Source of the DNA: an uncultured Nitrospira sp.
Lineage (GTDB): Bacteria > Nitrospirota > Nitrospiria > Nitrospirales > Nitrospiraceae
Reading direction: 5' to 3'
Length of the DNA stretch: 64,000 nucleotides
Assembly: GCA_964493335.1 (NCBI GenBank)
Contig: CAZBNV010000006.1
Span: 1,944 to 65,943, forward strand
In this document: positions 12,204 through 50,834 of the stretch, piece by piece
Layout: each line of letters begins with the position of its first letter
How positions within the stretch are numbered: position 1 is the stretch's first letter
The notes under the pieces: model-generated
Told to the model about the DNA's origin: nothing
Databases searched by the model: none
What the model saw: the letters and a program-made list of their open reading frames with translations, nothing else
Made by a program: the position numbers and the translations under genes

Positions 12204-12455
12204 CGTGTGCTCAGCATTCCCGGCAGACGGCTTGGATAGTTTGGTACAGGTCCTCGACCGACGGCCAGGAAAGTTATGGTCATGGCCGTGGCCGGTCTTA
12301 GAAAGCGCATCAATACATGGGAATCCCTCGTTGTGGAGGGAAGGACGGCTCCGGTCTCAGGACGCCATGCCCATGAGGCGGAACGAATACCTGTATACAT
12401 CCTGGATACAGGATGTATGGCGAACTTTTGTACTGCGATTCAGACATGCCCACCC

Positions 12456-12473
12456 ACTAGGGAGACCCCTAGT
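12456..12473 (-). promoter_or_regulatory. CTAG-palindrome box upstream of the kinase-cheR-cheB-kinase operon
   Basis: ACTAGG-GAGACC-CCTAGT is a perfect inverted repeat. On the minus strand it is followed after 23 nt by TACAAA (12427-12432). The leader to the 12203 start would be long, about 215 nt. Confidence 0.5.
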
Positions 12474-12510
12474 TTGCCTCCTGCGGCTGACGGAATGTAT
12501 TCGACTCAGG

Positions 12511-12885
12511 TTATTTAGGAATGGAGGGAGGCGGCAACTCAGGGGCGGCGCTGTCCATGACGCGCACGGCTCGACCTTGCTTATCCAGCTTGAGGGTAAT
12601 TCTTTGGCCCACCGAGAGATTGATGAAGAGCTCGGGCTTGACGATTTGAAATGCTACTTCTTTCCCCACATCAGTGGTCAGCGTGCCCTTCTTGTCTGCC
12701 AGATTCACCGTGCCCAGCGTTCCGGAGACGGTGTCATAAGCCTCAGCCGTTTCGGCATGTACTGGAGTGAGCCGGTGGATTTGAAACTCTGTCAGGGTGC
12801 CAAACAGCAAGCCTGCCGTTATTCCTCCCATGACCATTCCTCGAAGAACGGTGTGGTTTCGGCCCGATTGTGTGGGATCGTCCAT
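12511..12885 (-). CDS. Hypothetical membrane-anchored or exported protein
   Basis: AAGGAG lies 10 nt upstream of ATG 12885. One N-terminal hydrophobic helix is followed by a beta-rich soluble domain. I recognise no family. Confidence 0.6.
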   Translation of the reverse strand: MDDPTQSGRNHTVLRGMVMGGITAGLLFGTLTEFQIHRLTPVHAETAEAYDTVSGTLGTVNLADKKGTLTTDVGKEVAFQIVKPELFINLSVGQRITLKLDKQGRAVRVMDSAAPELPPPSIPK

Positions 12886-12929
12886 GGTGACTCTTCTCCT
12901 TTTCTAAACGCCTCTCCTGGCGGCGCGAT

Positions 12930-13121
12930 TTACTTTGGCGAACCTGGCATGAGAGGCGGTTGCGGAGTCGATGGCGGCACCGGCACAGGATCCGTCGGTT
13001 TCGGGGGAGCCGTAGGGCCAGGGCCTGGTTGCGGCATCGGCGCCGGCACCTCACCCAGCGATAAGCTTGCATTGCCGAATAAGATGCCGCAGATACCCAG
13101 GGTGGCGAATATCATCCTCAT
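12930..13121 (-). CDS. Small secreted proline-rich protein
   Basis: AAGGAG lies 8 nt upstream of ATG 13121. A signal-like N-terminus (MRMIFATLGICGILFGNASLSLG) is followed by a P-rich low-complexity tail. Confidence 0.45.
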   Translation of the reverse strand: MRMIFATLGICGILFGNASLSLGEVPAPMPQPGPGPTAPPKPTDPVPVPPSTPQPPLMPGSPK

Positions 13122-13181
13122 CAAAGTCTCTCCTTTTGCGCTACGGCCGGGACTCGTGGTGTCGGCTGCGCTCCAACGAGT

Positions 13182-13589
13182 TTACTGTGAACTTGCTCCG
13201 GATGCCGCAGGCACCGATTCCACCACCATTTTATGACAGATCTCAGCGCATCGCCGACATTCCTTAGCACAGTCTCCACAGAGCGGATGATGCGGGGCAT
13301 GTTGTTCACAGACGCCCGCGCAGACTTCACACAGTTCTGCGCACAACGCGCACATGCGCAGAGAAAAGGCGGAGGCTCGGCCCATCCATTGCGCCGCGAG
13401 CAAGCAGATGTCGGCGCAATCACGACAGAGCCTGATGCATCGCGCCGTCAAATCTTGCGCGGACGCATGCGACATGCCGATCATGTCGTCTCCGCACTTG
13501 TTGCAAACCCGGGCACAGGCCAGGCAGGCCTCGATGCAGGCTTCCATATGCTGCCCTACTGAGCGTTCGGCGAGATGGGAAGATTTCAT
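13182..13589 (-). CDS. Cysteine-rich four-helix-bundle protein (DUF326, copper-binding type)
   Basis: GGAGG lies 7 nt upstream of the ATG. Repeated CxxxC/CxxC helices (ACIEACLACARVCNKC, CIRLCRDCADIC, CALCAELCEVCAGVC, CGDCAKECRRCAEIC) are typical of DUF326. Confidence 0.8.
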   Translation of the reverse strand: MKSSHLAERSVGQHMEACIEACLACARVCNKCGDDMIGMSHASAQDLTARCIRLCRDCADICLLAAQWMGRASAFSLRMCALCAELCEVCAGVCEQHAPHHPLCGDCAKECRRCAEICHKMVVESVPAASGASSQ

Positions 13590-13692
13590 TGGCGCACCTC
13601 CGCATTGTCAATCCACTCATGGACTGTACGCACCCTAGGCCACTTTCCGGTAACTGGGCACTAGGGATACCTCTCGGCCCCCCATCATGATG

Positions 13693-13710
13693 ACTAGGGT
13701 AGTATCTAGC
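13693..13710 (+). promoter_or_regulatory. CTAG-palindrome box upstream of the PLD-DedA/EEP operon
   Basis: ACTAGG-GTAGTA-TCTAGC, followed after 23 nt by TATGGT (13734-13739). The predicted TSS near 13746 is about 83 nt before the 13829 start. Confidence 0.6.
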
Positions 13711-13828
13711 TAGAAGGGACCAGAGCGATTGGTTATGGTGCCCTACCTGGCAAAGGCAGGTCGCAGTCTGTGAGTGATGGAATTAGCCGTTCTGATCAAG
13801 CGTAGCTTCTTGAGAGGGCCGAAGAAGT

Positions 13829-16015
13829 TTGGAATCTAGCGTGAGGGATTCACCGGCAGTGCTGGAACCGGGACGAAATTGTTGGCGTCGCGAAGCGTTT
13901 GAAAAGGCCGCCTTTCTCATCGATGGCGAGGCGTATTTTCACGCATTCAGGGCCGTGGCGCTCCAGGCGAAACAGTCCATCTTCATCATCGGCTGGGACG
14001 TGGATACCCAAATCGAGTTGGTGAAGGGGGAGGACCAGAGCTCCGGCTTTCCCAGGCGGCTGGGCGAATTTCTGGTCGCGCTGTTACGGCGTAAACGAAA
14101 GCTCCGAGTCTATGTCCTCAATTGGGATTTTGCGATGATTTACGCCTGGGAGCGTCAATGGATGCCGACGGCCGAGCCTGGATGGAGCCGCCATCGCCGG
14201 TTCTCATACGAGGTCGATGGCCAGCATCCCCTTGGAGCCTCGCACCACCAAAAGGTGGTGGTCATCGACGACACGATCGCCTTCGTCGGCGGGCTGGATC
14301 TGTCCAAGTCTCGATGGGACACGTCTGCCCATGTGTCTCAGGATCCCCGAAGAATCAATCCCGATGGGACACCGTATGCTCCCTTTCACGACGTGCAGAT
14401 GATGGTGTCGGGCGAGGCTGCGGCAGCCTTAGGAGATCTAGCCCGAGGTCGGTGGCTGAATGCGACTGGCCGGCGGCTCGGTCGTTCGGAGCGTCGCGCG
14501 GTGAAGGAGCTCTGGCCCCCTGCATTGCAGTCCGATATCGCTGACTGGGAGGTCGGAATTCTCCGGACGCAGCCCGCCTATGAGGCGCAACCGGAGGCTC
14601 GTGAGATCCAGCACGCCTATCTGGATGCCATTAAGAGCGCTCGCCAATCTATTTATATCGAGTCGCAATATTTCACCGCCCATGTCATCGGCCGGGCGCT
14701 TGCGGCTCGGCTGTCAGAACAGAACGGACCGGAAGTGGTGCTGGTGCTTCGTCACGACTGTGACGGGTGGCTAGAACGTCAGACGATGGATGCCCTCCGA
14801 GCCCGGGTGCTGAACGAGATGGAGATGGCCGATCACTATCACCGACTGCGTGTCTATGCCCCGATGGTTCCAGTCACCGAGGGCAGAGATTATGTTGTGG
14901 TGCATAGCAAACTGCTCATTGTGGATGAGGAATTCTTATGCCTTGGCTCGGCCAACGTGTCGAATCGCTCCATGGGATTCGATACCGAGTGCAATCTTGC
15001 GATCGCGTCCGACGGACGGCCGGAGGTCCGGACGGCGATCGCGGGCCTTCGCAATCGATTGCTCAGTGAACACTTGGGAGTCGCGGAGAGCCTCGTGAAG
15101 GAACACATCGCGTCTTGTGGTTCACTGATCGGGACGATTGAGGCGCTTCGCAATGGACGGCGAAGTCTAGAGGATGAGTGCTTCGGTACCAGTCGAGAAG
15201 GGGCCGCTCTGATTCCAGAGCATTTGCTGATTGACCCTGAACGGCCGATAGCCGCCGATCAGTTCCTGGACAGTGTTATGCATCGTCGGGAACAGGGTCG
15301 GATGGGACGTCGCTCGCTGGCAGTGGCCTCAGTATTGGCGGCCACATTGGTATTGGCTGCCGCCTGGCGCTGGACCCCATTGGGCGACCTGGTAACAGTC
15401 GAGGGTATTCTCGAATCGGTGCAGTCCCTGGGCCGAGGACCGTTGGGATGGCTCACGCTGTTGAGTAGTTATATCCTGGGAGGGTTGCTCGTCTTTCCTC
15501 TCACGCTGCTGATCGTCGTGACCCTCGTGGCATTCGGGCCCTTGGTGGGTCCCCCAACCGCTCTCGTGGGCTCATTGCTCAGCGCCATGGCCATTTTTGG
15601 CCTCGGACGCCTCTTGGGGAGATACCGGGTCCAACGGCTCGCGGGACGTCGTATGTCTCACCTCGCTCAACGCATTGCCGAACGTGGGATGTGGGCGGTT
15701 CTGCTGGTGAGACTTCTGCCGATCGCCCCCTTTTCGACGGTGAATCTGGTTGCCGGCGCCACGCCTATCACTCTGCGGGACTATGTCCTCGGCACCGCGC
15801 TCGGGATGGCACCCGGAATTGTGGTCATGGCGATGTTCATCGATCGTCTTGAAGCAGTGGTGCGAAGACCGACTCCTCTCGCCTTTGTGGTGCTGGGGTT
15901 TCTGATTGCCGGTGCGTGGGCCTGTGCCTGGTACCTGTCGCGGCGATTACAACAAGGGCGGCATGACGCGCTTCCCGCCGATGCACCCAGCTCGACTGTC
16001 ACCGCGTGCCCATGA
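13829..16015 (+). CDS. Phospholipase D-family protein (two HKD motifs) fused to a C-terminal DedA/VTT (SNARE-associated) membrane domain
   Basis: HKD motifs HHQKVVVIDD and VHSKLLIVDEEFLCLGSANVSNRS. The C-terminus has about 5 TM helices with a VTT-like core (LLVRLLPIAPFSTVNLVAGAT). The TTG 13829 start is uncertain; GTG 13841 is an alternative. Confidence 0.85.
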   Translation: MESSVRDSPAVLEPGRNCWRREAFEKAAFLIDGEAYFHAFRAVALQAKQSIFIIGWDVDTQIELVKGEDQSSGFPRRLGEFLVALLRRKRKLRVYVLNWDFAMIYAWERQWMPTAEPGWSRHRRFSYEVDGQHPLGASHHQKVVVIDDTIAFVGGLDLSKSRWDTSAHVSQDPRRINPDGTPYAPFHDVQMMVSGEAAAALGDLARGRWLNATGRRLGRSERRAVKELWPPALQSDIADWEVGILRTQPAYEAQPEAREIQHAYLDAIKSARQSIYIESQYFTAHVIGRALAARLSEQNGPEVVLVLRHDCDGWLERQTMDALRARVLNEMEMADHYHRLRVYAPMVPVTEGRDYVVVHSKLLIVDEEFLCLGSANVSNRSMGFDTECNLAIASDGRPEVRTAIAGLRNRLLSEHLGVAESLVKEHIASCGSLIGTIEALRNGRRSLEDECFGTSREGAALIPEHLLIDPERPIAADQFLDSVMHRREQGRMGRRSLAVASVLAATLVLAAAWRWTPLGDLVTVEGILESVQSLGRGPLGWLTLLSSYILGGLLVFPLTLLIVVTLVAFGPLVGPPTALVGSLLSAMAIFGLGRLLGRYRVQRLAGRRMSHLAQRIAERGMWAVLLVRLLPIAPFSTVNLVAGATPITLRDYVLGTALGMAPGIVVMAMFIDRLEAVVRRPTPLAFVVLGFLIAGAWACAWYLSRRLQQGRHDALPADAPSSTVTACP

Positions 16016-16025
16016 GGAAGGATTG

Positions 16026-16736
16026 ATGCTGATGCACATGCGGGTTGCGTCCTATAACATCCATCGCGGGTTTGGGCGAGATGGGCGGTACGAGCCGCAG
16101 CGCATTCTTCACGTGCTGCAGGAATTGGACGCCGACATCATTGCGTTACAGGAAGTCGACGTGTTGGGGCCGGATACGATTCAAATCCTGCCCTGGTTGG
16201 CGACTCAGATGAAAATGACGGCGATAGCTGGACCGGTGCACTCGCGACCTGAAGGTGACTATGGAAATGCCCTGCTTACGAAATTTCCCGTCGAGAAGGT
16301 GAGACGATGGGATCTTTCGATTGGAGCCCACGAACCGCGCGGTGTGCTGGATACGGACATGGTCTGCAACGGGCAGTCCATTCATGTGTTGAATACTCAT
16401 CTGGGATTGTGGCCGTTAGAGCGGTCCCAGCAAGTGCAACGGTTACTTGAACTGTTGGATGTAAGACACCATGACCTCACGATCCTGATGGGAGATTTAA
16501 ATGAATGGTGTGCCTGGGGAAAGTCGCTACGGATATTACGACGGGTTTTCGGCCATCCAACGGCGCCTGAGACCTTTCCCGCCGCATGGCCGATCTTGGC
16601 GCTCGACCGGATCTGGGTGTCGCCCGCGCCAGCCCTTATTGGAGTTCAGGCGCACCATACAACATTAAGTGAGGCGGCGTCTGATCATCTGCCCGTGAGG
16701 GCTGAAATTTCAATTGGGTCGGAACGCAAGTTCTGA
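16026..16736 (+). CDS. Endonuclease/exonuclease/phosphatase (EEP) family protein
   Basis: ATG 16026 lies 10 nt after the PLD stop, preceded by GAGGAAGGA. EEP motifs: VASYNIHRG, ALQEV, GDLNEW, SDHLPV. Confidence 0.85.
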   Translation: MLMHMRVASYNIHRGFGRDGRYEPQRILHVLQELDADIIALQEVDVLGPDTIQILPWLATQMKMTAIAGPVHSRPEGDYGNALLTKFPVEKVRRWDLSIGAHEPRGVLDTDMVCNGQSIHVLNTHLGLWPLERSQQVQRLLELLDVRHHDLTILMGDLNEWCAWGKSLRILRRVFGHPTAPETFPAAWPILALDRIWVSPAPALIGVQAHHTTLSEAASDHLPVRAEISIGSERKF

Positions 16737-16743: not shown

Positions 16744-17208
16744 TTAACTCCGGGCCATCACCGGCACCTCAGAAGTCACTGGAAGCTCAATTGAATAGTG
16801 GCCATGCCCGAGATAGCTCAGACGCAGCTGTCCGACTCGGCTCAACCGGTCTACTTCTGAGAAGACTTGATTCCATGTCAGTGTGGGACAGGCCCGGACC
16901 AGCATGTCCAAATCACATTTCTGGACAGTCGTGAATACATCCAGAATGATGTTAGCCGTATCATTCTCAGGCCTGCTCGATGTGCTGTCTTGCCGTGAGA
17001 TGGGACCATCAATTCTGTGTAGCTTCCGGAACTGCGTGGCGCAGGCTGGGCAATAGGTGTGGGTCAGCTGGTACTCACCGCTCGATAAGTGGTGGGCCCT
17101 CAAAAAGGCCTCCAGAGTATCCCACGACTCCTCCTCACTCGCGGCCTGCACATGCTCTCTGACCCTGTTGCATACACAGCATATAGGGATGACGATGGCG
17201 GCGTTCAT
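16744..17208 (-). CDS. Hypothetical protein: N-terminal CxxC...CPxC zinc-ribbon-like module and a C-terminal winged-helix-like domain
   Basis: 154 aa. CCVCNRVR...W...THTYCPAC, then LTWNQVFSEVDRLSRVGQLRLSYLGHGHYSIEL. It has its own CTAG box and -10 upstream. Confidence 0.6.
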   Translation of the reverse strand: MNAAIVIPICCVCNRVREHVQAASEEESWDTLEAFLRAHHLSSGEYQLTHTYCPACATQFRKLHRIDGPISRQDSTSSRPENDTANIILDVFTTVQKCDLDMLVRACPTLTWNQVFSEVDRLSRVGQLRLSYLGHGHYSIELPVTSEVPVMARS

Positions 17209-17283
17209 GAGCCCCTCCCATTGATATCAACTGCGCGGATACAGTGGTAGTACGGATAGTAAAAAATTTGACCAGTGAGGAAA

Positions 17284-17301
17284 ACTAGGTGTCCTCCTAG
17301 T
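17284..17301 (-). promoter_or_regulatory. CTAG-palindrome box upstream of 16744..17208
   Basis: ACTAGG-TGTCCT-CCTAGT is a perfect inverted repeat. On the minus strand it is followed after 22 nt by TACTAT (17256-17261), leaving a leader of about 41 nt. Confidence 0.7.
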
Positions 17302-17430: not shown

Positions 17431-19164
17431 CTAGTCAGAAGGCTCTCGACCACCGGCGGGCAGGGTGTATCGTTCCTCAATCGCGGCGCGGATCAGCCGG
17501 CGGCTCTCGGGAGCCGGTACGACGTCTTGCTGTTCTATCTCCCGCACGTGATCCGCTAGTGTATCATCCTTGATACACTCTCTTATCCAGGCAGAGTAGT
17601 GATGGTTCACGAGATGATGGGTCCATGTCTCGTCATCCACCCCTTCGCCGATCTGCATGAAGAGTAGGAGGTTCTGGGCCCGCAGATTGAGGCTGCCTGT
17701 AGGACCCCTAAAGTAAAAGCTCCGGTTTGGCGGCAATTCGCCTTCGGCGTACTTCCGTCGGTGCCGGCGGCGTTCCATCGTACTCGGGGCGATCTCCAGC
17801 AGGAAAGGAGGTTCCTGCGAGGCGCGGTTCCACATCATCGCGCGGCCTGGCTCGAGGTCAGAACCTGCCAAGGCTGGGGCGGCCTGGTGAATCGCGGAGC
17901 AATAGGTCCCGATCGTCTTCTCTGGCGATTTTCCTAGGGCGAACACCATATCCGCGGTCTCGAGTATTGAAGGCTCAATCTGGTCGGGATGAACGGTGAC
18001 GTAGATCATGCCGGCTAACTCTTTCGCAAGGGCGAGTGCCGTGGGATTGCCGTCCGTAGGGAGCAGGTGGTGCGTTTCGTCCACCAGCATCCAATGCGGC
18101 CGGCCTCTCTTTGCGCGGAGTTCTTGGAGCTTGGGAAGCAATCCCAAAAAAAATGAGGGTCGGTCTTGTAGAGGCAGGCCGACGAGATTCACCACGACGT
18201 GGTTGTGGGGATTGGCCAAGGCCGTCAGAATTTCAGTGAGGCTAGGACCATCCTGCGCCGTACCGAGGACGATCGCCTGGGGAAAGTTTTCATAATCACC
18301 TTCCGGATCGATGACGCACGATTGATAACCTCGTTCGACGAGCCGCTCAAGCAGGCCGGTGGCGAGTGTGGATTTTCCGCTGCCGGAGGTCCCGGCAAGC
18401 AGTAGATTTTGTCGCGCCGGGTAGAGGTTCACGTCGTCGCCATTGTCCCGCTGTCCGAGGAGGATTCGATGCCTCGACACAGATTGTTCCGCAACCTCCA
18501 GGTCGTTCTCCACCAGGTCGTTGATGAGCTCGATGACGCCGATGCCATGGTCTCCGGCGGTAGTACGATCCGCCGTTTCTTTCAGCATAGGCACGGCGTT
18601 CGCGACGGCGACGCCATATTCGGAGAGCGTGAGCATGGCATGATCGTTTTCTCCATCGCCGATCGCCGCAATATTGTGCGGTGAGAGTTCCAACTCTTTG
18701 AGCGCGGCCGTCAGCCCCGTGGCTTTGTTGACCCCTGGAGAAAGCACCATGACGGCGCCTTTATTGAAAATAATGCGTAGCTCCAGGCCGAGGTCCCGGA
18801 TGATATCCAGAATGACGGTTTCATAAGGCACGCGGGTGGCGACGATGGAATGTCCGATGCTGAGATGCTGCACTCCTCGACGCTGCACTTCGTCCAGGAA
18901 GGCCGGGCGAGGGGCGGGGGCCAGCAGGGTAATTTCCTTGGTCGCGGGACGGTACAAGACCGCCCCGTTTTCCGCCACCACGCGTTCGCACAATGTGACC
19001 TGAGGAAAGATCTCCAACAGCTCCGGCAAGAGCCGACCCGTCACCAGAATCAATTTGCGACCGGATGCCACCAGGCGATCGATGGCGTCGACGGTGTCCG
19101 GAGTGACGGTTCCGTCGGAGGCCAAGGTTCCGTCATAGTCGGCTGCTAACGCTAGATACCGCAT
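17431..19164 (-). CDS. Fusion protein: HAD-IIB (Cof-type) phosphatase domain and a HerA/FtsK-like P-loop ATPase domain
   Basis: HAD motifs DYDGTL and GDGENDHAML. Walker A is AGTSGSGKST and Walker B is HWMLVDETHHL. I prefer ATG 19164 over TTG 19194 because the predicted TSS lies near 19207. Confidence 0.8.
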   Translation of the reverse strand: MRYLALAADYDGTLASDGTVTPDTVDAIDRLVASGRKLILVTGRLLPELLEIFPQVTLCERVVAENGAVLYRPATKEITLLAPAPRPAFLDEVQRRGVQHLSIGHSIVATRVPYETVILDIIRDLGLELRIIFNKGAVMVLSPGVNKATGLTAALKELELSPHNIAAIGDGENDHAMLTLSEYGVAVANAVPMLKETADRTTAGDHGIGVIELINDLVENDLEVAEQSVSRHRILLGQRDNGDDVNLYPARQNLLLAGTSGSGKSTLATGLLERLVERGYQSCVIDPEGDYENFPQAIVLGTAQDGPSLTEILTALANPHNHVVVNLVGLPLQDRPSFFLGLLPKLQELRAKRGRPHWMLVDETHHLLPTDGNPTALALAKELAGMIYVTVHPDQIEPSILETADMVFALGKSPEKTIGTYCSAIHQAAPALAGSDLEPGRAMMWNRASQEPPFLLEIAPSTMERRRHRRKYAEGELPPNRSFYFRGPTGSLNLRAQNLLLFMQIGEGVDDETWTHHLVNHHYSAWIRECIKDDTLADHVREIEQQDVVPAPESRRLIRAAIEERYTLPAGGREPSD

Positions 19165-19241
19165 CTCGCACGTCCCTCGCAAAATGTAGACCAACGCTGT
19201 CTCGGTACCGCTGACCCTATACTACTCCACCCCCCTGGAGA

Positions 19242-19259
19242 GCTAGGAGGTCTCCTAGG
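19242..19259 (-). promoter_or_regulatory. CTAG-palindrome box upstream of the HAD-ATPase gene
   Basis: GCTAGG-AGGTCT-CCTAGG. On the minus strand it is followed after 22 nt by TAGGGT (19214-19219). Confidence 0.7.
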
Positions 19260-19438: not shown

Positions 19439-20986
19439 CTATGCCCGATCTTGTTTGATCGGGCTCAAGTCGCTCGTCGCAGGCCCGTTCAGCACTGTGC
19501 CGAATTTATCGAAGCGCGACCCATGACAGGGGCAGTCCCATGTTTTTTCGGTGTGGTTCCAGGCCACGATACAGCTGAGATGCGGGCAGACGGCGGAGCA
19601 GGTATGAAGGGTTCCTTGCTCGTCGCGGTAGGCGGCGATTTTTGTAAGCCCCTCCCTCAGCACGGCTCCCTGTTCGTTGGGAATTTTCTCTGCACTGTCC
19701 ACGTCGCCACCGGTCATCCAGTCGGCATATTGCGCCGCGACGTTCAGGTTTTCGCGCATAAACTCTCCGGCGGCGCGAATCGGCTGGCGGGACGGATCAT
19801 ACAGGGATGTCCAGGCCGACTCGCGGCCCATGATCAGATCGGTAATCAAAAGACCGGCGATGGTCCCGTGAGTCATCCCCATGCCGGAGTCACCAGTCGC
19901 AATGTACACATTGTCCGAATCGCCGGGGTTCCGGCCGATGAAGGCCAGGCCATCCACCGACTCCATCACTTGTCCGGACCATTGAAAGTCCACTGTCTGC
20001 ATCATAGGGAAGCGCTCGCGTGCCCAGGCCTCGAGTCGAGCATACCGAACCTCAGCATCGTCGGCTTGTCCAGCCTTGTGGTCCTCGCCGCCGACGATGA
20101 GGACAGCCTGCTCGCCTCCCTCTGGCAACGACTGCCGATGGATCCGCACATAGTGGTAGGGGTCGAGCGTATCCCATAATAAGGCAGGTTCAATCGATCC
20201 GACCGGTACGACCGCTCCAATGACGTAACTGATGTAGGCCGCCTGCTTCGTATGAATCGTCAACATATTGTTGATCGGAGTATTGGTGGCGATGACGACG
20301 GCATCCGCAGTCACCACGCTTCCCTGGCTCGTTTCCAGTTTGATCTTTTGACCGCTTTCGACGGTGGTGACATGCGCATCGCTGAAGACGCGCCCGCCAC
20401 CTGCCTGAATGGCCTTGAGCAAGCCGGACACATACTTCACAGGATGAAATTGAGCCTGCCTCGGAAACCGCAGGCAGGGCCCGGTCCTAAACATCTTCCC
20501 TGGCAACCGGTCGAGTCGCTCGACACCAGTGAGGCCGGCCCGTCTGGCAGCCTGCCATTCGTCCTCGATCAGGTTTCGGGCATCATCGGAAGGGGCAAAA
20601 AGATAACCGTCCAGCCTCATAAAGTCGCATGCGATCCGCTCCTCCAGGCGTATCTTGTCGATCCAATCAATGGCTGCCGTGTGACTCTCGGCCGCCAGTT
20701 GCGCGCCGGGCTTGCCATGGAGACGTTCTATTTCGACGTAGCGATCGTCGATGGCATTCGAGAGGTGCGCCGTCGTCCGCTGCGTCATACCTCCGCCAGG
20801 CTGTCCGGCGTCCAACAAGATGATGGACTTGCCCTCCTTCATCAGGCGGTAGGCCGTCGTGATTCCGGCAATGCCCGCACCCACAATGCACACGTCGGCG
20901 TGAGCTCCTACGACCAGTGGGGGCATGGCCGGCGCATCCTGTGACATCCAGAGCGAAATACTTTGTCCAGACTCGTTGTTCATCAT
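19439..20986 (-). CDS. FAD-dependent oxidoreductase (DAO family) with a C-terminal Rieske [2Fe-2S] domain
   Basis: Dinucleotide-binding motif VCIVGAGIAGITTA. Rieske motifs CPHLSC...CPCHGSRF. AAGGAG lies before the ATGATG start. Confidence 0.85.
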   Translation of the reverse strand: MMNNESGQSISLWMSQDAPAMPPLVVGAHADVCIVGAGIAGITTAYRLMKEGKSIILLDAGQPGGGMTQRTTAHLSNAIDDRYVEIERLHGKPGAQLAAESHTAAIDWIDKIRLEERIACDFMRLDGYLFAPSDDARNLIEDEWQAARRAGLTGVERLDRLPGKMFRTGPCLRFPRQAQFHPVKYVSGLLKAIQAGGGRVFSDAHVTTVESGQKIKLETSQGSVVTADAVVIATNTPINNMLTIHTKQAAYISYVIGAVVPVGSIEPALLWDTLDPYHYVRIHRQSLPEGGEQAVLIVGGEDHKAGQADDAEVRYARLEAWARERFPMMQTVDFQWSGQVMESVDGLAFIGRNPGDSDNVYIATGDSGMGMTHGTIAGLLITDLIMGRESAWTSLYDPSRQPIRAAGEFMRENLNVAAQYADWMTGGDVDSAEKIPNEQGAVLREGLTKIAAYRDEQGTLHTCSAVCPHLSCIVAWNHTEKTWDCPCHGSRFDKFGTVLNGPATSDLSPIKQDRA

Positions 20987-21062
20987 GATCTCCTTGCGTA
21001 GAGCCCTGTGCCGGGGGAACAGGGGTATTGGTGTGAGCCTAGAGGAGAGGGTGGAGAATACA

Positions 21063-21080
21063 GCTAGGCATGGACCTAGT
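21063..21080 (-). promoter_or_regulatory. CTAG-palindrome box serving the FAD-Rieske gene
   Basis: GCTAGG-CATGGA-CCTAGT. On the minus strand it is followed after 21 nt by TAGGCT (21036-21041), leaving a leader of about 43 nt. Confidence 0.7.
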
Positions 21081-21114: not shown

Positions 21115-21132
21115 GCTAGGGATTATCCGAGT
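21115..21132 (+). promoter_or_regulatory. CTAG-palindrome box serving the ku operon
   Basis: GCTAGG-GATTAT-CCGAGT, followed after 22 nt by TATTTT (21155-21160). The predicted TSS is near 21167. Confidence 0.6.
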
Positions 21133-21207
21133 TGGCGGCGAGGATCTCTGTCGGTATTTTGTGGCAGCAATTGTGCTCACGTACCGCATGGAAGTGCAGC
21201 CGGTCAC

Positions 21208-21414
21208 ATGATGATCTGTCCCTATGACTGCAACCCCTGTTCCGACCCATCCTGTCGGCACGATGGGTGCAAGCAGGTCAGCGAGGCGGCGCATATGATC
21301 TGCGACGGCTGTGGTGAACCGGTGGGTTGTGTCAATTGTGTTCATCTGTGTGTGGCCTGTGTCCGTGTCTCCGACAAGTCTTTATCCCTGTTGAATAAAA
21401 ATAAGAAGGTGTAG
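21208..21414 (+). CDS. Possible cysteine-rich small protein (68 aa, 15 Cys) immediately upstream of ku
   Basis: The ORF starts at ATGATG 21208, about 41 nt after the predicted TSS, and ends 2 nt before the ku ATG. Sequence: MMICPYDCNPCSDPSCRHDGCKQ...CDGCGEPVGCVNCVHLCVACV. There is no strong SD and I recognise no family. Confidence 0.35.
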   Translation: MMICPYDCNPCSDPSCRHDGCKQVSEAAHMICDGCGEPVGCVNCVHLCVACVRVSDKSLSLLNKNKKV

Positions 21415-36498: not shown

Positions 36499-36567
36499 CG
36501 ACTCGCCACGCTACGAGCAGAAGGTCCGGGCTGCGTCACGATCCGCTCGTTTTTCGTATGAGCAGCC

Positions 36568-37222: not shown

Positions 37223-37240
37223 GCTAGGGTACCCACTAGC
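37223..37240 (+). promoter_or_regulatory. CTAG-palindrome box upstream of the OMP-Slp-ligD unit
   Basis: GCTAGG-GTACCC-ACTAGC, followed after 22 nt by TACAGT (37263-37268), leaving a leader of about 63 nt to ATG 37338. Confidence 0.6.
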
Positions 37241-37967: not shown

Positions 37968-37992
37968 GAAACGGGGGCAGTCGCAGCATCTG

Positions 37993-41733: not shown

Positions 41734-41936
41734 GACCTGTAATCCGGCCACGCCGCTGTCTGCGAGAAGGAGGCGTTATGGCGCAGTATCTGGATCCACT
41801 TATACGATCCGGAGCCATGTGGTCATGTGGACGACAGTCGGCGGTCAGGCCGCAGTCTGGACTGTGGTCGAGAATCTGGAGGTGGCTGGGAGTGAGCCGT
41901 CCCGCCGCACCGAGGCCCATCGTCTTTCGGAGCCCG

Positions 41937-42313
41937 TTATTGAGGCCGGGAAGGCCACGGTACTGAAGAGGGCATTTTCGCTTGTCTATAATCGAGACGG
42001 GTCTGCTGGACGACAATCGGAACGGTCGATTCGACCACGCTGGCATAATCCGTATCTGGCGGAATTGGTGCAGGATCCGAGAGTTGATTGAAACGGAGGT
42101 GTTTCGTACGCCGTACTGGGACTGAAAGCCCGTAGGGGCCCCCACCGGCTCGCGATCCGAGAAGTAGACCGTGATCCGAACGTCGGCATCCAGGTCTGAG
42201 ATATTGAGTAGGCAGAGGGTCTCATGACTGATCATTTGCCGGGGACGGCCCCTGGCTGCTTGGTGGATATAGCCTTCGGCAAGCGCCCAGCCGGTGCGTC
42301 CAATCGCATCCAT
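41937..42313 (-). pseudogene. ASRT-family (Anabaena sensory rhodopsin transducer-like) gene disrupted by two frameshifts
   Basis: Frame A reads MDAIGRTGWALAEGYI...ISHETLCLLNISDLDADVRITVYFSDREPVG. Homology continues in a second frame (GPYGLSVPVRRTKHLRFNQLSDPAPIPPDTDYASVVESTVPIVVQQTRLDYRQA) after the G/C run at 42135-42143. It then continues in a third frame (ENALFSTVAF) after the T/A run at 41975-41978. Confidence 0.7.
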
Positions 42314-45925: not shown

Positions 45926-46642
45926 TTATGTTGCTGCTGTGGTTGCGCGATCCCGTGGCTCATTGCTCTGGTGATCCGCCGGAGAAGATGCTCGCGCGCC
46001 GGCTGACCCCTTTTCGCTATCGGGCTGAGATGACGCATTGAGTCCAAAAGAACGCGCGATCTCCGGCACCATCTTGCGTGCTAATTCCACCATCAAAGAG
46101 CGACCCACCTGCAGCAGGACGGTTTTAGCCTGCTCAGCCTCTTGGCTGAATTCGCGCGACATGCTGTCCCACACGCTTGTTTGAGATCGAGCTGTTTGTG
46201 TTGTCCGCGACTGTGATCCCGTAGGATAGTAGTCATAGACGCCATCCGCTTTATCGGTGGCGGCTCCAGCTTGGCGGGCGGATTCCGGCATGACCCGCGA
46301 TGCTCGAGCCCCTGCGGGATAGTAAGGATAGACGCCACTGCGCTGAGATCGCGACCGTGACTCCATCAATCCGACGGCAAAACCAGCGCAAATGGCCCCG
46401 CCCAGCATGAGCCATGGGTACTCATCGACTTTGTGGATTGGATCTAATGCCGATTTGGTTTTATCGACCATCTGGTTGACCGTCTCAGTCGTCTCCTCCA
46501 GCATGCGCGAAAATTTCATTGTCGCTCCCTCCGCCGTATCGATTATACGTTGTTCCAACAACTCGAGTTTCTCGGCAATGGCGACTCGCGTGTCGACGAT
46601 GTCCTTCACGTCCTGGTCGATAGTAGTTGTTCTTTGATCCAT
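45926..46642 (-). CDS. Hypothetical coiled-coil protein with a central TM helix
   Basis: AAGGAAG lies 7 nt before ATG 46642. A helical N-terminus is followed by the TM helix YPWLMLGGAICAGFAVGLM and a Ser/Gln-rich tail. Confidence 0.6.
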   Translation of the reverse strand: MDQRTTTIDQDVKDIVDTRVAIAEKLELLEQRIIDTAEGATMKFSRMLEETTETVNQMVDKTKSALDPIHKVDEYPWLMLGGAICAGFAVGLMESRSRSQRSGVYPYYPAGARASRVMPESARQAGAATDKADGVYDYYPTGSQSRTTQTARSQTSVWDSMSREFSQEAEQAKTVLLQVGRSLMVELARKMVPEIARSFGLNASSQPDSEKGSAGARASSPADHQSNEPRDRATTAAT

Positions 46643-47013
46643 TGGGCATCTTCCTTTATGGAATGAACGGTACGGAATGGCCAAAGCCGGAGACTGGATC
46701 CTATCTTGGCCAGGTTGTACAAAAAGATGCCGCTCAGCGAGGCGGCGATGACTGCGACGAGTCCATAACACGACCACAACGGCATACCGGTGTAGGCCTG
46801 AAGAATATGCACCAGCATGACCAACAACAGGCCGATGGCCATCAAAATCAGCATGCTGCCGAGGGCGGCATGGATCAGCCCGATTACGACCTTCCGCAGT
46901 TCGAGCTGCATCTCGTGCTGAGCTAGTCGTACCTCCTGCGACACAAGTCGCCGCAGATCGGCCACCAGGCCTGTCGCTAAGGCAGCAATTGAAATGGGAT
47001 GCGGATTATCCAT
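46606..47013 (-). CDS. Holin-X/DUF1469 family membrane protein (E. coli YqjE-like)
   Basis: ATG 47013 follows an AAAGGAA SD. Two TM helices are flanked by LVADLRRLVSQEVRLAQHEMQLEL, which is typical of the family. Confidence 0.7.
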   Translation of the reverse strand: MDNPHPISIAALATGLVADLRRLVSQEVRLAQHEMQLELRKVVIGLIHAALGSMLILMAIGLLLVMLVHILQAYTGMPLWSCYGLVAVIAASLSGIFLYNLAKIGSSLRLWPFRTVHSIKEDAQWIKEQLLSTRT

Positions 47014-47041
47014 AACGGTTCCTTTTTTCCGTACTCGCGAC

Positions 47042-47383
47042 TCAATCAGGACGGAGGCGCGAGAGTAAGTACCCGCACCCCAATCCAAGCAATAGGGTTT
47101 GTAGAGGATAGCGCCGAATGAGAACTTCGAGATCTTCGACGATGCCGCTCATGCCTTCTTTTTGCAAATAGTCGGCGGTATGCTTGACTCCGCGGGACAT
47201 TGCAGCCGCTGCCTCGCCCACGGTTCCGCTTTCCGGCAACCGCCGGCGAAAGTTTTCAGCCGCAGATCCTAGCGCGTCGCCGGCTTGCTCGCTTAGGCCC
47301 TCGGCAGACTCGACGGTGTCTTTCGCGGCTTGTTTCAGCGTCGATCCGACCGATTCTTCCATGCTTAGTTTCTCCCGCTCCAT
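47042..47383 (-). CDS. DUF883 (ElaB/YqjD-like) tail-anchored stress protein
   Basis: GGGAGG SD. A helical, Ala/Glu-rich N-terminus and the C-terminal anchor YPLQTLLLGLGCGYLLSRL. Confidence 0.7.
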   Translation of the reverse strand: MEREKLSMEESVGSTLKQAAKDTVESAEGLSEQAGDALGSAAENFRRRLPESGTVGEAAAAMSRGVKHTADYLQKEGMSGIVEDLEVLIRRYPLQTLLLGLGCGYLLSRLRPD

Positions 47384-47492
47384 GTGATGCCTCCCGTTAC
47401 AGACAAGGTTCCGGCACGAGTAGTGCTGCGGTGTTGTTTCGATTGGTTTTCATCGTACAGTCAGAGACTAGCGCGATCGACGGCTTTCCTAC

Positions 47493-47510
47493 ACTGGGCA
47501 AAGCCCTAGA
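47493..47510 (-). promoter_or_regulatory. CTAG-palindrome box upstream of the ElaB-like operon
   Basis: ACTGGG-CAAAGC-CCTAGA. On the minus strand it is followed after 22 nt by TAGTCT (47465-47470). Confidence 0.65.
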
Positions 47511-47682: not shown

Positions 47683-48111
47683 TTATTCCGAATGTTCTGA
47701 CGGGATCGTCGCGAGTAGTGGAAACATGTCGCGTTCCTCCGCCAGGAAATGCGCGCGCACCGTCTGCATCATGTCTTCAAAAAATTCGTCAAATGCCTGG
47801 TCATCGTCGGTTTCGGCTTGCTGCAACTCGGTCATCATGGCCTTGACCTCGTCATGTTCGAGCAACGCTTCCTGCACGAGGTGTCGACCCTGTTCGCTTC
47901 CGCTTCGGATCTCTCCGTACAGAAGTGTTTCTTCCGCCTGGAAATGCGAGGCGAGCTGCTCCAGAATTTGATCGACAATGGGCTTTCGGGCATCGGCTTC
48001 AGCGGTCAGATACAGCTGAAACAATGCCAAAATGTGCCGGTGTTCATCACGGACCATTTTTTGAACATCGCTGACTCCTCGGGACTTTCCAGAGTCTCTT
48101 TTGGGGATCAT
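47683..48111 (-). CDS. Hemerythrin-like (HHE cation-binding) domain protein
   Basis: GGGAGG SD. His/Glu ligand pattern: EHRHIL, HFQAEE, EHDEVK, HFLAEERDMFP. Confidence 0.8.
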   Translation of the reverse strand: MIPKRDSGKSRGVSDVQKMVRDEHRHILALFQLYLTAEADARKPIVDQILEQLASHFQAEETLLYGEIRSGSEQGRHLVQEALLEHDEVKAMMTELQQAETDDDQAFDEFFEDMMQTVRAHFLAEERDMFPLLATIPSEHSE

Positions 48112-48187
48112 TGAATTGCCTCCCTCGATGGTCGATGGTGGCCTGTTGGTTATAAAGAAAATTTAGCAGCTTGAAATGGGGGTGCTA

Positions 48188-48205
48188 ACTGGGCAAGACC
48201 CTAAT
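48188..48205 (-). promoter_or_regulatory. CTAG-palindrome box (degenerate) upstream of the hemerythrin gene
   Basis: ACTGGG-CAAGAC-CCTAAT. On the minus strand it is followed after 22 nt by TAAATT (48160-48165), leaving a leader of about 42 nt. Confidence 0.6.
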
Positions 48206-48426: not shown

Positions 48427-49905
48427 TTACCGAGTTTCCTGTCTTGACGACGCACGCGCCCCATTATCCTCAACCGTAATGTTGCCGTGGGCACTCGCGG
48501 TTCCCTGAAGCAAAATCGTAGCGATCCAGGCTTGGGGAGTCGAGTGCGCTTGATCGGGTTGTTGGCCCGTGACGAGGATGTCCGTCGTCACGGTGCCTAC
48601 CGTGTGTTTCCCTGTAATTGCCTGCTTCATCTGATCAATTTGCGAGGAGAAGTCCATGGTGATAGCCTGGCGGAGTTTGGTTTTCAATTCTCTGTCGACC
48701 GTTTGCCAATAGCCCACGCGTATAGAGTCGAGCGCTGTCCTTGATTCATTGGCCATCTGCAGGTCCGGAACTGATAAGGTTTTTCCATTATCATCCAGCC
48801 GGGGAGTCCCCCAGTAATAGATGGTTCCCTTCAGATCACTGCCGGTCTCGACCGCCAGTAAGATACGACCGTTCGCATCTGCAGCCGTGACGCGTTCAAT
48901 GATGGCGCTTTCTGATCCCGCGCTATCCAGAACCAGCGTTTGATGAAACAGTTTGCTTTGGAGTTGGTGGCTGAGTGTGGCATAGGACAGGGGAATTTTT
49001 GCTAAGATCATGAACGGCTTGGAGTCGCGCGCGGGAGTTCCTGCATTCACGAGCGCCGTCGTCGGTGGCGCTTCTGTGCAGGATGGCTCGAGGTTGATCA
49101 TCGGCATCTGTCGAGCAAATCCCGAGATGATCGTCTCCTGGGTCGTCCCTTGCTGCTGGCCCAGCATCACCTCTCGCGGATTTCCGTACAAACATGCACG
49201 GGTGTTGAGGGCCGAAATGGGGACCGATAGGGGACCTCCTAGGTCATCCCATAAACGTTGAAATGGAATGTTGAATGTGTCCGGTTGAACAGACTCCGCC
49301 AAGGCGGTCTTCACTTCGGATAGGGAGAACAATTCTGGTAACTGATCTTTCACGGGGATGTTGAACATGTTGCACCGCGCGTCGCTTTCCGGCTTCAGGC
49401 CGACTGTGACTTGTGCAGGCTCAAAACCAAATGCGACGGATTCGCGGTCCTGCAGCAACACCAATTTCCCTGTCGCATCCAAAGTGGAATAGACGGGATC
49501 GAGTCGACAGGTCCTTGCCCCGCCGCGCGTTTCGATATCCCCTTTATACTCGGCATGAACCGCGACAAGGCCATCCTGTATGCGGACTTGGGGTTGGCCA
49601 TTGCGAACAAATGTCCACCGGAAATCTTTCTCCAGTGCATGTCCCGCTTCCGTGAACCGTTCGGGAATCGCGTCCCGAACCGCAGATTGAACCGGCGTAA
49701 GGTCGGTCTTGATCTGTAGCGGCACCTGGGAGAGCGGCGCCTTGGGCGGTTCCTTGTTCATGGCTGCGAAGGAAGGCACGGCGCTGGCAATGGGAGGCGG
49801 AACCGGTTTGGATGCAGCCTGGGGAATGGTATGGCTGCACGCGCCAGTTATCAGAACGATGGGCAGTAGCGCCAGTATGATGGATCTCGAACGGTGTTGC
49901 ATCAT
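48427..49905 (-). CDS. Large lipoprotein of unknown function
   Basis: GGGAGG precedes ATGATG at 49905/49902. Signal with lipobox LITGAC. About 490 aa, beta-rich. I cannot name a family with confidence. Confidence 0.7.
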   Translation of the reverse strand: MMQHRSRSIILALLPIVLITGACSHTIPQAASKPVPPPIASAVPSFAAMNKEPPKAPLSQVPLQIKTDLTPVQSAVRDAIPERFTEAGHALEKDFRWTFVRNGQPQVRIQDGLVAVHAEYKGDIETRGGARTCRLDPVYSTLDATGKLVLLQDRESVAFGFEPAQVTVGLKPESDARCNMFNIPVKDQLPELFSLSEVKTALAESVQPDTFNIPFQRLWDDLGGPLSVPISALNTRACLYGNPREVMLGQQQGTTQETIISGFARQMPMINLEPSCTEAPPTTALVNAGTPARDSKPFMILAKIPLSYATLSHQLQSKLFHQTLVLDSAGSESAIIERVTAADANGRILLAVETGSDLKGTIYYWGTPRLDDNGKTLSVPDLQMANESRTALDSIRVGYWQTVDRELKTKLRQAITMDFSSQIDQMKQAITGKHTVGTVTTDILVTGQQPDQAHSTPQAWIATILLQGTASAHGNITVEDNGARASSRQETR

Positions 49906-50022
49906 GAGCCTCCCAGACATCTCACATGCGGGGTCTCGCTCATGACGCGCTACCGCCACCTTGCACGCGCTCCGTGCAGGACCGCAGTCCGGAGCGAGAC
50001 CCTCGCTGTACAAATCAGAGCC

Positions 50023-50331
50023 TTACGGCTGCTGGATTTGCAGGTTGTTGTTCACAGTTCTCACGCCCTTGACCTCGCGTGCCATTTCCGCGACTCGAAT
50101 CTTTTGATCGGCAGATTTCACGACTCCGTTCAGAGTCACGACACCGCGTTCCGTGTCGACGTCGATGCGGGAAAAATTGGACAAGCGATCGGAAGATAAT
50201 TTGGACTGCACTGAGGCGGTGATGGTCGCATCGTCCATGGTCTGTCCGGCGGTCTTTCCGGTCGTGGACTGGCAACCCGCGATCGAGAGACATGTGACGG
50301 CAAGAGCGATGCAAGCGAATCGGCTGATCAT
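50023..50331 (-). CDS. BON-domain lipoprotein (OsmY-like)
   Basis: AGGAGA SD and lipobox SIAGC. The BON domain reads DDATITASVQSKL...IDVDTERGVVTLNGVV...A..V.GV..V.N.L. Confidence 0.85.
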   Translation of the reverse strand: MISRFACIALAVTCLSIAGCQSTTGKTAGQTMDDATITASVQSKLSSDRLSNFSRIDVDTERGVVTLNGVVKSADQKIRVAEMAREVKGVRTVNNNLQIQQP

Positions 50332-50376
50332 AGTTGTTCTCCTGTATAAGGGTGTGTCGTAATTAAATTCTCGGGA

Positions 50377-50703
50377 CTAGCCCCGTCGGGAAACCGCTTC
50401 AGTGGATGCCTTTTCTGCCGTCTGCTTCGTCTCATCGACGAACTCGCGAGCGGCTCGCCCCGCATTGCGCAATGCTTGTTTTCCACCTTCGACATATTCC
50501 TGACCCCGCTCGACAGCGGTATCCCAGGCCGCACGTCCTTGCTCAGTGGCTTCGTCGAGTTCATCCTTCGCCCTCGATGCGTAATCGCGCAGAGAAGAGC
50601 GAAGCTCTGATCCCGATTGAGGCGCCAATAGCAAAGCTACGCCGGCACCGATGAATGCGCCCGCCAAAAACGCCGACCAATTGGAAGAATCTTGTGTCTG
50701 CAT
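50377..50703 (-). CDS. YtxH-domain general stress protein
   Basis: AAGGAGG SD. The N-terminal helix FLAGAFIGAGVALLLAPQSGSELR is the YtxH signature, followed by a helical tail. Confidence 0.85.
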   Translation of the reverse strand: MQTQDSSNWSAFLAGAFIGAGVALLLAPQSGSELRSSLRDYASRAKDELDEATEQGRAAWDTAVERGQEYVEGGKQALRNAGRAAREFVDETKQTAEKASTEAVSRRG

Positions 50704-50816
50704 AACTCGACCTCCTTATTCTCACCCACACGTGCGATGGTTTGACTGCGCTGTTTTGGCCTACCGGTTCGACAGCTGTTTGCAAACACAGTCTAGCAAC
50801 ATGTCGGAAATCTCTA

Positions 50817-50834
50817 ACTAGGCAAGGCCCTAGT
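50817..50834 (-). promoter_or_regulatory. CTAG-palindrome box upstream of the ytxH-BON-lipoprotein unit
   Basis: ACTAGG-CAAGGC-CCTAGT is a perfect inverted repeat. On the minus strand it is followed after 21 nt by TAGACT (50790-50795). Confidence 0.7.

Follow-up and report, generated by a model that had tools for sequence, protein, structure and literature searches.

A recurrent 18-bp palindrome with the consensus a-CTAGG-g-N4-c-CCTAG-t was found at eleven promoters in a 64-kb stretch of DNA from an uncultured Nitrospira sp. (contig CAZBNV010000006.1; this whole stretch is hereafter the window). Its occurrence extends beyond this genome: the palindrome is conserved throughout Nitrospira and also turns up in Terriglobales and at least one further lineage. 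It is putatively the operator of a dimeric factor, most likely a response regulator of the NarL/FixJ type that would activate a stress regulon, an identification held at about even confidence.

Palindromic sites in the window

Exact copies of CTAGG-N6-CCTAG numbered five in the window (0.01 expected from 100 dinucleotide shuffles), and copies with at most two mismatches numbered 30 (13.7 expected from dinucleotide shuffles). The tetranucleotide CTAG was scarce (61 copies vs 237 expected from base composition), and 19 of the 61 copies were contained in the eleven sites. The symmetry was 6-N6-6 or 5-N6-5, with the CTAGG centres 11 bp apart. Ten of the 18-mers had been listed in a preliminary description made from the letters of the window, and all ten were recovered at their listed positions; the eleventh, at 13660-13677 on the minus strand, was absent from that list. 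Intergenic placement, as claimed earlier for the ten, held for all eleven, although ~91% of the window is coding (chance ~3e-12). One extra match with a single mismatch, at 49227, was intragenic and without a -10 at the proper distance, and is probably a chance occurrence. The sites, their -10 hexamers, the genes that they serve and their conservation (loci are denoted by L and a number) were as follows.

12456..12473, minus strand: ACTAGGGGTCTCCCTAGT (read on the minus strand), promoter of the signalling operon (GAF-kinase 9081-12203, cheR 8248-9084, cheB 7658-8251, HisKA_3 hybrid kinase 5547-7649); non-consensus -10 TACAAA at 12427..12432 (minus strand), offset 23 past the palindrome; a counterpart stands before the kinase cluster of CP092081.1, a complete genome (L174 14559).
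13660..13677, minus strand: CCGAGAGGTATCCCTAGT; -10 TAGGGT at 13632-13637, offset 22; serves a Csp-like DUF326 gene (13182-13589) and a 124-aa gene (12511-12885); conserved in five other genomes (L002, L003, L004, L174, L177).
13693..13710, plus strand: ACTAGGGTAGTATCTAGC; -10 TATGGT at 13734-13739; serves a PLD-VTT gene (13829-16015) and an EEP phosphatase gene (15906-16736); conserved in L002, L174 and L177.
17284..17301, minus strand: ACTAGGAGGACACCTAGT; -10 TACTAT at 17256-17261; serves a 154-aa Zn-ribbon and winged-helix gene (16744-17208); kept upstream of orthologues in at least eight loci.
19242..19259, minus strand: CCTAGGAGACCTCCTAGC; -10 TAGGGT at 19214-19219; serves a HAD-phosphatase/P-loop ATPase gene (17431-19194); conserved in L002, L006, L011 and L012.
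21063..21080, minus strand: ACTAGGTCCATGCCTAGC; -10 TAGGCT at 21036-21041; serves a FAD(DAO)-Rieske oxidoreductase gene (19439-20986); half-sites invariant and spacer variable in a 10-genome alignment.
21115..21132, plus strand: GCTAGGGATTATCCGAGT, then TTG; -10 TATTTT at 21155-21160; serves a 68-aa Cys-rich open reading frame (ORF; 21208-21414), ku (21417-22277) and genes for topoisomerase IB, an alpha-amylase-family protein, glycogen debranching enzyme and DUF72 (to 28188); almost fully invariant in the same alignment.
37223..37240, plus strand: GCTAGGGTACCCACTAGC; -10 TACAGT at 37263-37268; serves an outer-membrane protein (OMP) beta-barrel gene (37299-37967), Slp (37876-38694) and ligD (38730-41348); conserved in L004, L007, L008, L009 and L016.
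47493..47510, minus strand: TCTAGGGCTTTGCCCAGT; -10 TAGTCT at 47465-47470; serves a 113-aa 'ElaB-like' gene (47042-47383) and a Holin-X-family gene (46606-47088).
48188..48205, minus strand: ATTAGGGTCTTGCCCAGT; -10 TAAATT at 48160-48165; serves a hemerythrin gene (47683-48111), homologues of which stand behind motif sites in four other loci.
50817..50834, minus strand: ACTAGGGCCTTGCCTAGT; -10 TAGACT at 50790-50795; serves YtxH (50377-50703) and a BON-domain gene (50023-50331); this promoter was recovered independently from metagenomes by motif scan (L087, L159).

The earlier gene labels agreed with Pfam, apart from the 113-aa 'ElaB-like' gene, for which no Pfam or NCBIfam match was obtained, and the description of the genes served as stress, dormancy and repair genes was supported. 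The 68-aa Cys-rich ORF (plus strand, MMICPYDCNPCSDPSCRHDGC…), the first gene of the ku operon, likewise had no Pfam or NCBIfam match, and was kept together with its site in 12 genomes.

Promoter architecture and spacing

Counted in the direction of the downstream gene, a TAnnnT hexamer followed the 18-mer at an offset of 21–23 nt in 10 of the 11 window sites (9 of the 10 listed earlier, as had been claimed), the exception being the site of the kinase operon. Because TACAGA stands at the identical offset in the complete Nitrospira genome CP092081.1 (L174), the TACAAA of that operon was taken to be a conserved non-consensus -10. Over the window and the Nitrospira loci together (149 palindrome orientations), TAnnnT was counted 15, 28 and 8 times at offsets of 21, 22 and 23 nt, respectively, and 0–4 times at each of the other offsets from 0 to 59. 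These counts support the earlier proposal of a fixed distance to a minimal sigma-70-type -10, with the palindrome centre near -43.5; when the -10 hexamer is set at -12..-7, the palindrome spans ~-52..-35.

A profile of 78 oriented instances read a-CTAGG-g-n-t-n-y-y-c-C-[T/G]-A-G-t-T, with a near-invariant distal half and a relaxed proximal half; among the ten listed sites, the promoter-distal half had correctly been named the better conserved (CTAGG in 9 of 10). Such proximal-relaxed, distal-strict symmetry would be typical of an operator that overlaps polymerase contacts. Across the 78 instances a weak T-T-G was seen at the expected start of a -35 hexamer spaced by 17 bp, and G was frequent at -14; the earlier remark that no good -35 is present holds for the window's own sites. 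Geometry and the poor -35 hexamers of the window would favour activation.

A repressor operator (of any family), at which polymerase is blocked at -35 until a stress signal releases the repressor, was considered unlikely. Occlusion is also suited by a palindrome overlapping -35, the DNA-damage and desiccation regulons of LexA and DdrO/RDRM work by repression, ku and ligD are among the genes served by the palindrome here, and the Terriglobales promoters carry a fairly good TTGTCA-like -35 directly after the palindrome and so may not need an activator. Set against this, the -10 spacing is fixed within 1 nt over ~75 sites, the window's own -35 hexamers are poor, and relaxed proximal with strict distal half-sites fit an activator that shares space with sigma region 4. 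A fixed spacing and a poor -35 are hallmarks of promoters that depend on an activator; the position of a repressor site is usually more variable.

Two further readings of the element were rejected. A promoter for an alternative sigma factor (RpoS, extracytoplasmic function or sigma-54 type) was discarded because the element ends 21–23 nt before the -10, too far for a -35 hexamer; the element is also symmetric and the -10 an ordinary TAnnnT. A terminator or RNA hairpin was discarded because the sites lie upstream of the -10 and therefore would not be transcribed. An Rfam scan of the window gave no match.

The leader of the kinase operon holds a separate feature, a perfect 10-bp inverted repeat (ATACATCCTG-TATC-CAGGATGTAT, 12395-12418, minus strand), which begins ~8 nt past TACAAA at the predicted 5' end of a ~220-nt leader. 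A different hairpin, CCCCAG…CTGGGG, occupies this position in CP092081.1, and the two sequences suggest a conserved 5' stem-loop rather than a second operator.

Conservation across Nitrospira

The best relatives of the window ku (90% protein identity) were found in Nitrospira and in Nitrospiraceae metagenome-assembled genomes (MAGs), which places the window in Nitrospira. In ~35 related Nitrospira loci the half-sites and the spacing were kept while the N6 spacer and the flanks drifted, examples of changed N6 spacers at orthologous promoters being GCTAGGCATGGACCTAGT, GCTAGGGATGGGCCTAGT and GCTAGGCAGAGGCCTAGT. In the ku loci of Beta- and Gammaproteobacteria the palindrome was nearly absent (a single match with one mismatch, L034). 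Mean column identity was 59% in a ten-genome alignment of the divergent FAD-Rieske/ku region, and the invariant columns fell almost all in the two palindromes and in the TTG after the second; the pattern reads as a textbook phylogenetic footprint of a putative protein-binding site. Being conserved and non-random, the palindrome was upheld as a genuine cis-element, as proposed earlier, and not a chance pattern.

The genes recurrently behind the motif across genomes were a 63–70-aa Cys-rich ORF with ku (12 genomes), the FAD-Rieske oxidoreductase (7), the 154-aa Zn-ribbon/winged-helix gene (6), hemerythrin and a 139–151-aa lipoprotein (5 each), and the OMP, the 113-aa ElaB-like gene and the HAD-ATPase (3 each). 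The island of CP092081.1 and of JAJFBJ010000028 additionally holds catalase, BrkB, DUF748, CsbD, ferritin/rubrerythrin, CBS and superoxide dismutase (SOD) genes, and carries more sites, before kinase genes and before a 66-aa ORF that is followed by ferritin/rubrerythrin.

In some genomes a central CTAG is shared by two overlapping sites, giving three CTAG boxes at 12-bp spacing (L006 5090/5102, L011 6511/6523, L012 2257/2269, L028 ~5100-5160). These triple boxes precede the HAD-ATPase, or a 78-aa Zn-ribbon gene and then a CRP gene, and hint at cooperative binding or alternative binding registers.

Occurrence outside Nitrospira

Metagenomes were scanned with the pattern ACTAGG-N6-CCTAGT-N21-23-TAnnnT, and at least 120 loci were retrieved, comprising three classes: chance matches, an unrelated repeat and a second real regulon. 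The first class consists of low-GC loci with a lone match and nothing further. The second is marked by a CTAG-rich block of ~110 nt (…gcataaCTAGGGTTTTGCCTAGTaactagctagtaactaggctagtagtctggcagtg) that stops abruptly at ctggcagtg and is often found in two inverted copies on the same contig (L054, L068, L071, L072, L077, L086, L089, L096, L100, L110, L118, L124, L128, L129, L136, L139, L140, L151, L154, L158, L171); it is probably the terminal inverted repeat of a transposon or of a miniature inverted-repeat transposable element (MITE), and its match to the pattern coincidental. A different repeated palindrome family was seen in L114, a 12.2-kb metagenome contig, in which about a dozen ACTAGGACRYGTCCTAGG-type palindromes lie within ~6 kb (~300-6300), mostly without a -10 at the right distance.

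That the Nitrospira sites are themselves a non-regulatory repeat (an element resembling a repetitive extragenic palindrome or MITE, a restriction-modification footprint or a structural DNA motif) was judged very improbable. CTAG-rich palindromes do occur as mobile-element termini, and both such a family and the palindrome-dense contig L114 were brought up by the same scan. Against this, the flanks beyond the 18-mer are not conserved, sites are kept at orthologous promoters while spacers change, every site lies between genes, ahead of a gene and in phase with a -10, and there is no Rfam match; the orthologue, spacing and flank data effectively refute the repeat.

The third class has a GC fraction of 0.53–0.60 and perfect palindromes (ACTAGGGAWWTCCCTAGT), often two or three per locus. 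The single named close homologue of its FNR-like protein belongs to a Terriglobales bacterium (Acidobacteriota). Among the matches listed, class 3 sites that had not been selected on a -10 showed TAnnnT at offset 22 in at least 11 cases and at other offsets between 0 and 44 in 0–3; because sites unselected on the -10 still show offset 22, the architecture is shared and not an artefact of the search pattern. Downstream of the motif, a stand-alone receiver of ~155 aa was found in at least eight loci across these lineages, and an FNR-like CRP-family gene in L056, L057 and L119 (Terriglobales, among the matches listed).

Candidate regulators

In Terriglobales, a gene with receiver and GerE domains (REC+GerE, by Pfam) was found directly upstream of the motif and the stand-alone receiver at L057, L081, L094, L103 and L119, and upstream of the motif at L076, where the receiver gene probably lies between; HisKA_3 kinases adjoin these REC+GerE genes. 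Such a gene also adjoins the motif in the lineage of L180 and in L125 and L133. The GerE helix KT[V/A]EFH[R/K] was present in at least ten motif-retrieved loci (KTAEFHR in L085), and the variants KSVEFHR (L104) and NTVEFHK (L132) were retrieved by tblastn. The receivers of the helix-bearing regulators are NarL/VraR-like in Terriglobales and truly FixJ-like in L125, L133 and L149, and the factor common to these motif-linked regulators outside Nitrospira is the recognition helix. This helix (KTVEFHRARIMAK) aligns with that of Sinorhizobium meliloti FixJ (RTVEVHRANVMAK, PDB 1X3U), and 10 of 16 positions, TTTCCCT among them, agree between the published FixJ site of PfixK (TAAGTAATTTCCCTTA; PMC4999443) and the Terriglobales core (CTAGGGATTTCCCTAG); the agreement is weaker for the Nitrospira sites.

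A third lineage (L085, L172, L173, L180) has the order CheB, HisKA_3 remnant, GerE (KTVEFHK), motif, CRP gene and BON gene, and its gene order links the Che-like kinase cluster of the window type to a GerE regulator; proteins of the L085/L180 lineage are ~30% identical to those of Nitrospira. The genes at L180 8221-9802 (on a 1.96-Mb contig) look like a single kinase-regulator pair broken by deletion or frameshift, or possibly by long-read sequencing error: they are CheB, a HisKA_3 fragment that runs into a receiver-domain end, and an 89-aa GerE ORF that stands apart. Contigs related to L180 hold GerE remnants of 53–65 aa only, and a homology search with the motif-adjacent GerE fragment of L085 returned only three short GerE-only ORFs; judging by the arrangement in L180, these short ORFs would be pieces of a broken regulator gene.

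Within the window, Pfam or NCBIfam scans of essentially all ORFs left only kinases, receivers, the 154-aa protein and a 129-aa winged-helix-like ORF as candidates. The signalling genes at 2395..7649 comprise the following features.

2395-4515, plus strand: REC-PAS-HisKA_3-HATPase-REC hybrid kinase.
4613-5002, plus strand: 129-aa winged-helix-like ORF.
4723-5259 (ORF) and 5263-5544, plus strand: DUF5985.
5547-7649, minus strand: REC-PAS-HisKA_3-HATPase-REC hybrid kinase.

This cluster is also present in CP092081.1 and JAJFBJ010000028, and may feed the regulator of the palindrome. The signalling operon (GAF-kinase with three receivers, CheR, CheB and HisKA_3 hybrid kinase) itself carries the palindrome. 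Two window genes had been put forward in the preliminary description as candidate regulators, and neither proposal gained support: no site precedes 4613..5002 in the window, and its homologues occur in Nitrospira only, with none at the motif loci of other lineages, and 16744..17208, a conserved target, belongs to a family that in full length is confined to Nitrospira, while the motif is found more widely.

The second of these genes was nevertheless considered as an autoregulated binder in Nitrospira, which was regarded as quite unlikely. Its promoter has a perfect site in every Nitrospira genome examined; its C-terminal domain is predicted to be a winged helix (AlphaFold2 model, predicted local distance difference test score 66), with DNA-binding winged-helix proteins (AspA, MarR, BlaI, Fur) among its best fold matches (Foldseek E = 3e-3 to 3e-2), and its predicted recognition helix, TWNQ.F.EVDRL.R, is invariant in 35 homologues. 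These fold matches are, on the other hand, weak and include non-DNA-binding winged helices, and the protein has no Pfam, NCBIfam or PDB sequence match. The full-length family is Nitrospira-only wherever an organism is named (54 clusters), the motif and its spacing occur in Terriglobales and other lineages with no 154-aa homologue at those motif loci, and a common binder of this family is therefore unlikely. Elsewhere its domains are separate small proteins, and Zn-ribbon-only homologues are themselves motif targets, behind sites at L085 9954-10274 and L180 7787-7948. The protein is more likely an effector than a regulator. In composition it is a four-Cys ribbon (CCxC…CPxC) fused to a small winged helix, and a profile search showed the halves as separate proteins (~65–120 aa) in many metagenomes.

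A CRP/FNR-family dimer, bound as a classical class II activator, was also thought improbable, if less so than the 154-aa protein. Cyanobacterial NtcA class II promoters have GTA-N8-TAC with TAN3T; likewise, a 16-bp 5-N6-5 palindrome, equal in geometry to a CRP site, here replaces a good -35 at a fixed distance from TAnnnT, and an estimated centre near -43.5 with a poor -35 would suit such an activator, the centre lying ~2 bp further upstream than the -41.5 of class II sites. CRP/FNR genes stand directly downstream of the motif in three lineages (Terriglobales L056/L057/L119; L085/L173/L180; Nitrospirota-like L028, via a 78-aa gene), which would fit autoregulation. Their recognition helices are not conserved, however, and differ by lineage (SRETVTR vs TRSRVSH) while the DNA motif is unchanged, which makes these genes look like targets, in the manner of fixK under FixJ. 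To our knowledge the half-site is unlike any CRP/FNR site; no CRP/FNR gene was found in the window or the core Nitrospira loci, and in L018 two CRP/FNR copies lack an upstream motif.

Proposed mechanism and points against it

The NarL/FixJ-type regulator, under the proposal preferred here, would be a phosphorylated member of that superfamily with a GerE helix-turn-helix of recognition helix S-x-K-T-V-E-F-H-R/K. Its bound dimer would abut the -35 position and recruit RNA polymerase in a class II manner at promoters whose -35 is poor and whose -10 is minimal (TAnnnT, frequently preceded by G at -14), and would switch on at least eleven transcription units together. These would provide non-homologous end joining (ku, ligD), topoisomerase IB, glycogen/trehalose-type enzymes, PLD-type and phosphatase proteins and small Cys-rich proteins, and further hemerythrin, YtxH/BON, the OMP/Slp pair and the Csp-like protein. 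Phosphorylation would enter from the signalling cluster of HisKA_3 hybrid kinase, CheR and CheB, and since that cluster is itself a target, positive feedback would result.

Several observations weigh against this proposal. Six-frame pattern search and tblastn revealed no GerE regulator gene in the 64-kb window or in the Nitrospira loci examined, and none was present in the ~10–20 kb that flank the island at each end in CP092081.1 and in JAJFBJ010000028, where an outward walk by exact-protein look-ups met more kinases, CsbD, ferritin/rubrerythrin, CBS, SOD and further sites. Exact look-ups of proteins of the window itself gave no match or, in one case, a lone 2.3-kb contig. The assignment of the Nitrospira regulator thus leans on cross-phylum synteny and helix conservation, and a regulator gene beside the motif might be only a neighbour, or a target, and need not encode the binder. 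At its centre, the Nitrospira motif (GGG-N4-CCC kept in part) departs from that of Terriglobales, agreement with the FixJ site is incomplete, and the published definitions of that site are mutually discordant (PMC4999443). The 78-instance profile has no information content upstream of the 18-mer and no conserved second box, and DevR promoters differ in this respect; activation and the -43.5 position are themselves read from sequence; and the metagenome sample was arbitrary and is biased.

A more inclusive proposal is tentative. The element could belong to a cross-phylum module (Nitrospirota, Acidobacteriota and at least one more) in which a Che-like, methylation-adapted hybrid-kinase phosphorelay would, through a regulator with a FixJ-type helix alone, drive the general stress and dormancy programme, in the role that RpoS or EcfG has in Proteobacteria, the DNA-binding output in Nitrospira having possibly been replaced or relocated, for example to the Zn-ribbon/winged-helix protein.

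Comparison with known systems

The RpoS regulon of Gammaproteobacteria and the EcfG regulon of Alphaproteobacteria share Ku/LigD, glycogen/trehalose, BON/OsmY-like, Slp and ElaB-like genes, and the similar gene content controlled here, with catalase, CsbD, ferritin/rubrerythrin and SOD in the related Nitrospira islands, fits a stress/dormancy programme. In these proteobacterial regulons an alternative sigma promoter is used, whereas here a palindromic operator lies upstream of a sigma-70-type -10. The lux, tra and las boxes are 18–20-bp palindromes bound by GerE-type dimers, centred near -42.5, overlapping -35 and fitting CT-N12-AG, and the element resembles them in all of palindrome length, centre, -35 overlap and CT-N12-AG. 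It differs from the LuxR systems in that no autoinducer-binding protein or synthase is present in the window, and in that, outside Nitrospira, the proteins associated with it are receivers that depend on phosphorylation.

FixJ activates the CRP/FNR gene fixK, and Caulobacter FixT is a single-domain receiver; a likeness to FixLJ-FixK(-FixT) is accordingly seen in the CRP/FNR gene downstream of the motif in three lineages and in the stand-alone receiver gene that is also a target. A likeness to FixJ itself is seen in the GerE-type helix and in the TTTCCCT core given above. FixJ footprints on PfixK cross the -35 region, from -57 to -31, and FixJ SELEX (systematic evolution of ligands by exponential enrichment) classes are GTAGTTTCCC and GTAMGTAG, with 18-bp imperfect palindromes in fixK promoters (PMC4999443). 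The outer bases differ, being CTAG here and TAAG in the FixJ site, and the Terriglobales regulators, with NarL/VraR-like receivers and HisKA_3 partners, are not FixL/FixJ orthologues. In Nitrospira the regulon is made up of genes for stress, repair and the envelope, without fixNOQP or nif, CheR/CheB-linked hybrid kinases stand in the place of FixL, and the GerE regulator gene was not found in the Nitrospira window, loci or flanks examined.

The kinases DosS and DosT carry GAF sensor domains, and a GAF kinase heads the signalling operon here. DevR, a NarL-family protein, binds an 18-bp palindromic box, the promoter-proximal box at tgs1 being centred at -42.5 (PMC3177182), and the DevR/DosR dormancy regulon clusters around signalling genes (PMC5069765). 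The element resembles the DevR/DosR system (Mycobacterium tuberculosis; OsdR in Streptomyces) in having an 18-bp palindromic box, here centred near -43.5, and stress and dormancy genes beside signalling genes. It differs in its half-site (CTAGG vs GGGACT of the Dev box; PMC3177182), in lacking a conserved second box where DevR needs at least two tandem boxes in helical phase, and in the recognition helix (TVEFHR in the motif-linked regulators vs the KTVK.H type of DevR). The palindrome would work like a FixJ or DevR site, but on its sequence and architecture would not be assigned to either regulon.

The earlier remark that the operator was not recognised as that of any characterised regulator could be kept in part: no description of it was found in the literature on the motif or on a Nitrospira stress regulon, but the element resembles the published FixJ site, and the operator therefore has relatives among characterised ones.

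Other features of the window

Between the regulon units, and without a motif site of its own on its side, a cluster resembling alternative complex III lies at 28552-37086 (minus strand), with two cytochrome bd-like subunit I genes and genes for ActD/cytochrome c, NrfD-like, 4Fe-4S, molybdopterin oxidoreductase and cytochrome c7-like proteins. A 269-aa protein encoded at 41504-42313 (minus strand) carries an ASRT (Anabaena sensory rhodopsin transducer) domain at its N terminus; the window showed no gene for a rhodopsin.

Significance

Nitrospira grow slowly, and their genetics is hard. Among nitrite oxidisers they are described as some of the most widespread, in soils, waters and wastewater plants (PMC6606698). 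In the literature searched, no general stress or dormancy regulator and no promoter-level motif was found for Nitrospira. With a short, sharp operator, the regulon can be listed directly in any genome or MAG. The operator joins double-strand-break repair, storage-carbohydrate enzymes, envelope proteins, hemerythrin and a large sensory kinase cluster, and permits prediction of their co-response to starvation, hypoxia and drying, capture of the regulator and design of reporters. Given the FixJ-helix regulators beside the element in Terriglobales, the findings suggest an old module that is widely distributed in slow-growing bacteria of soils.

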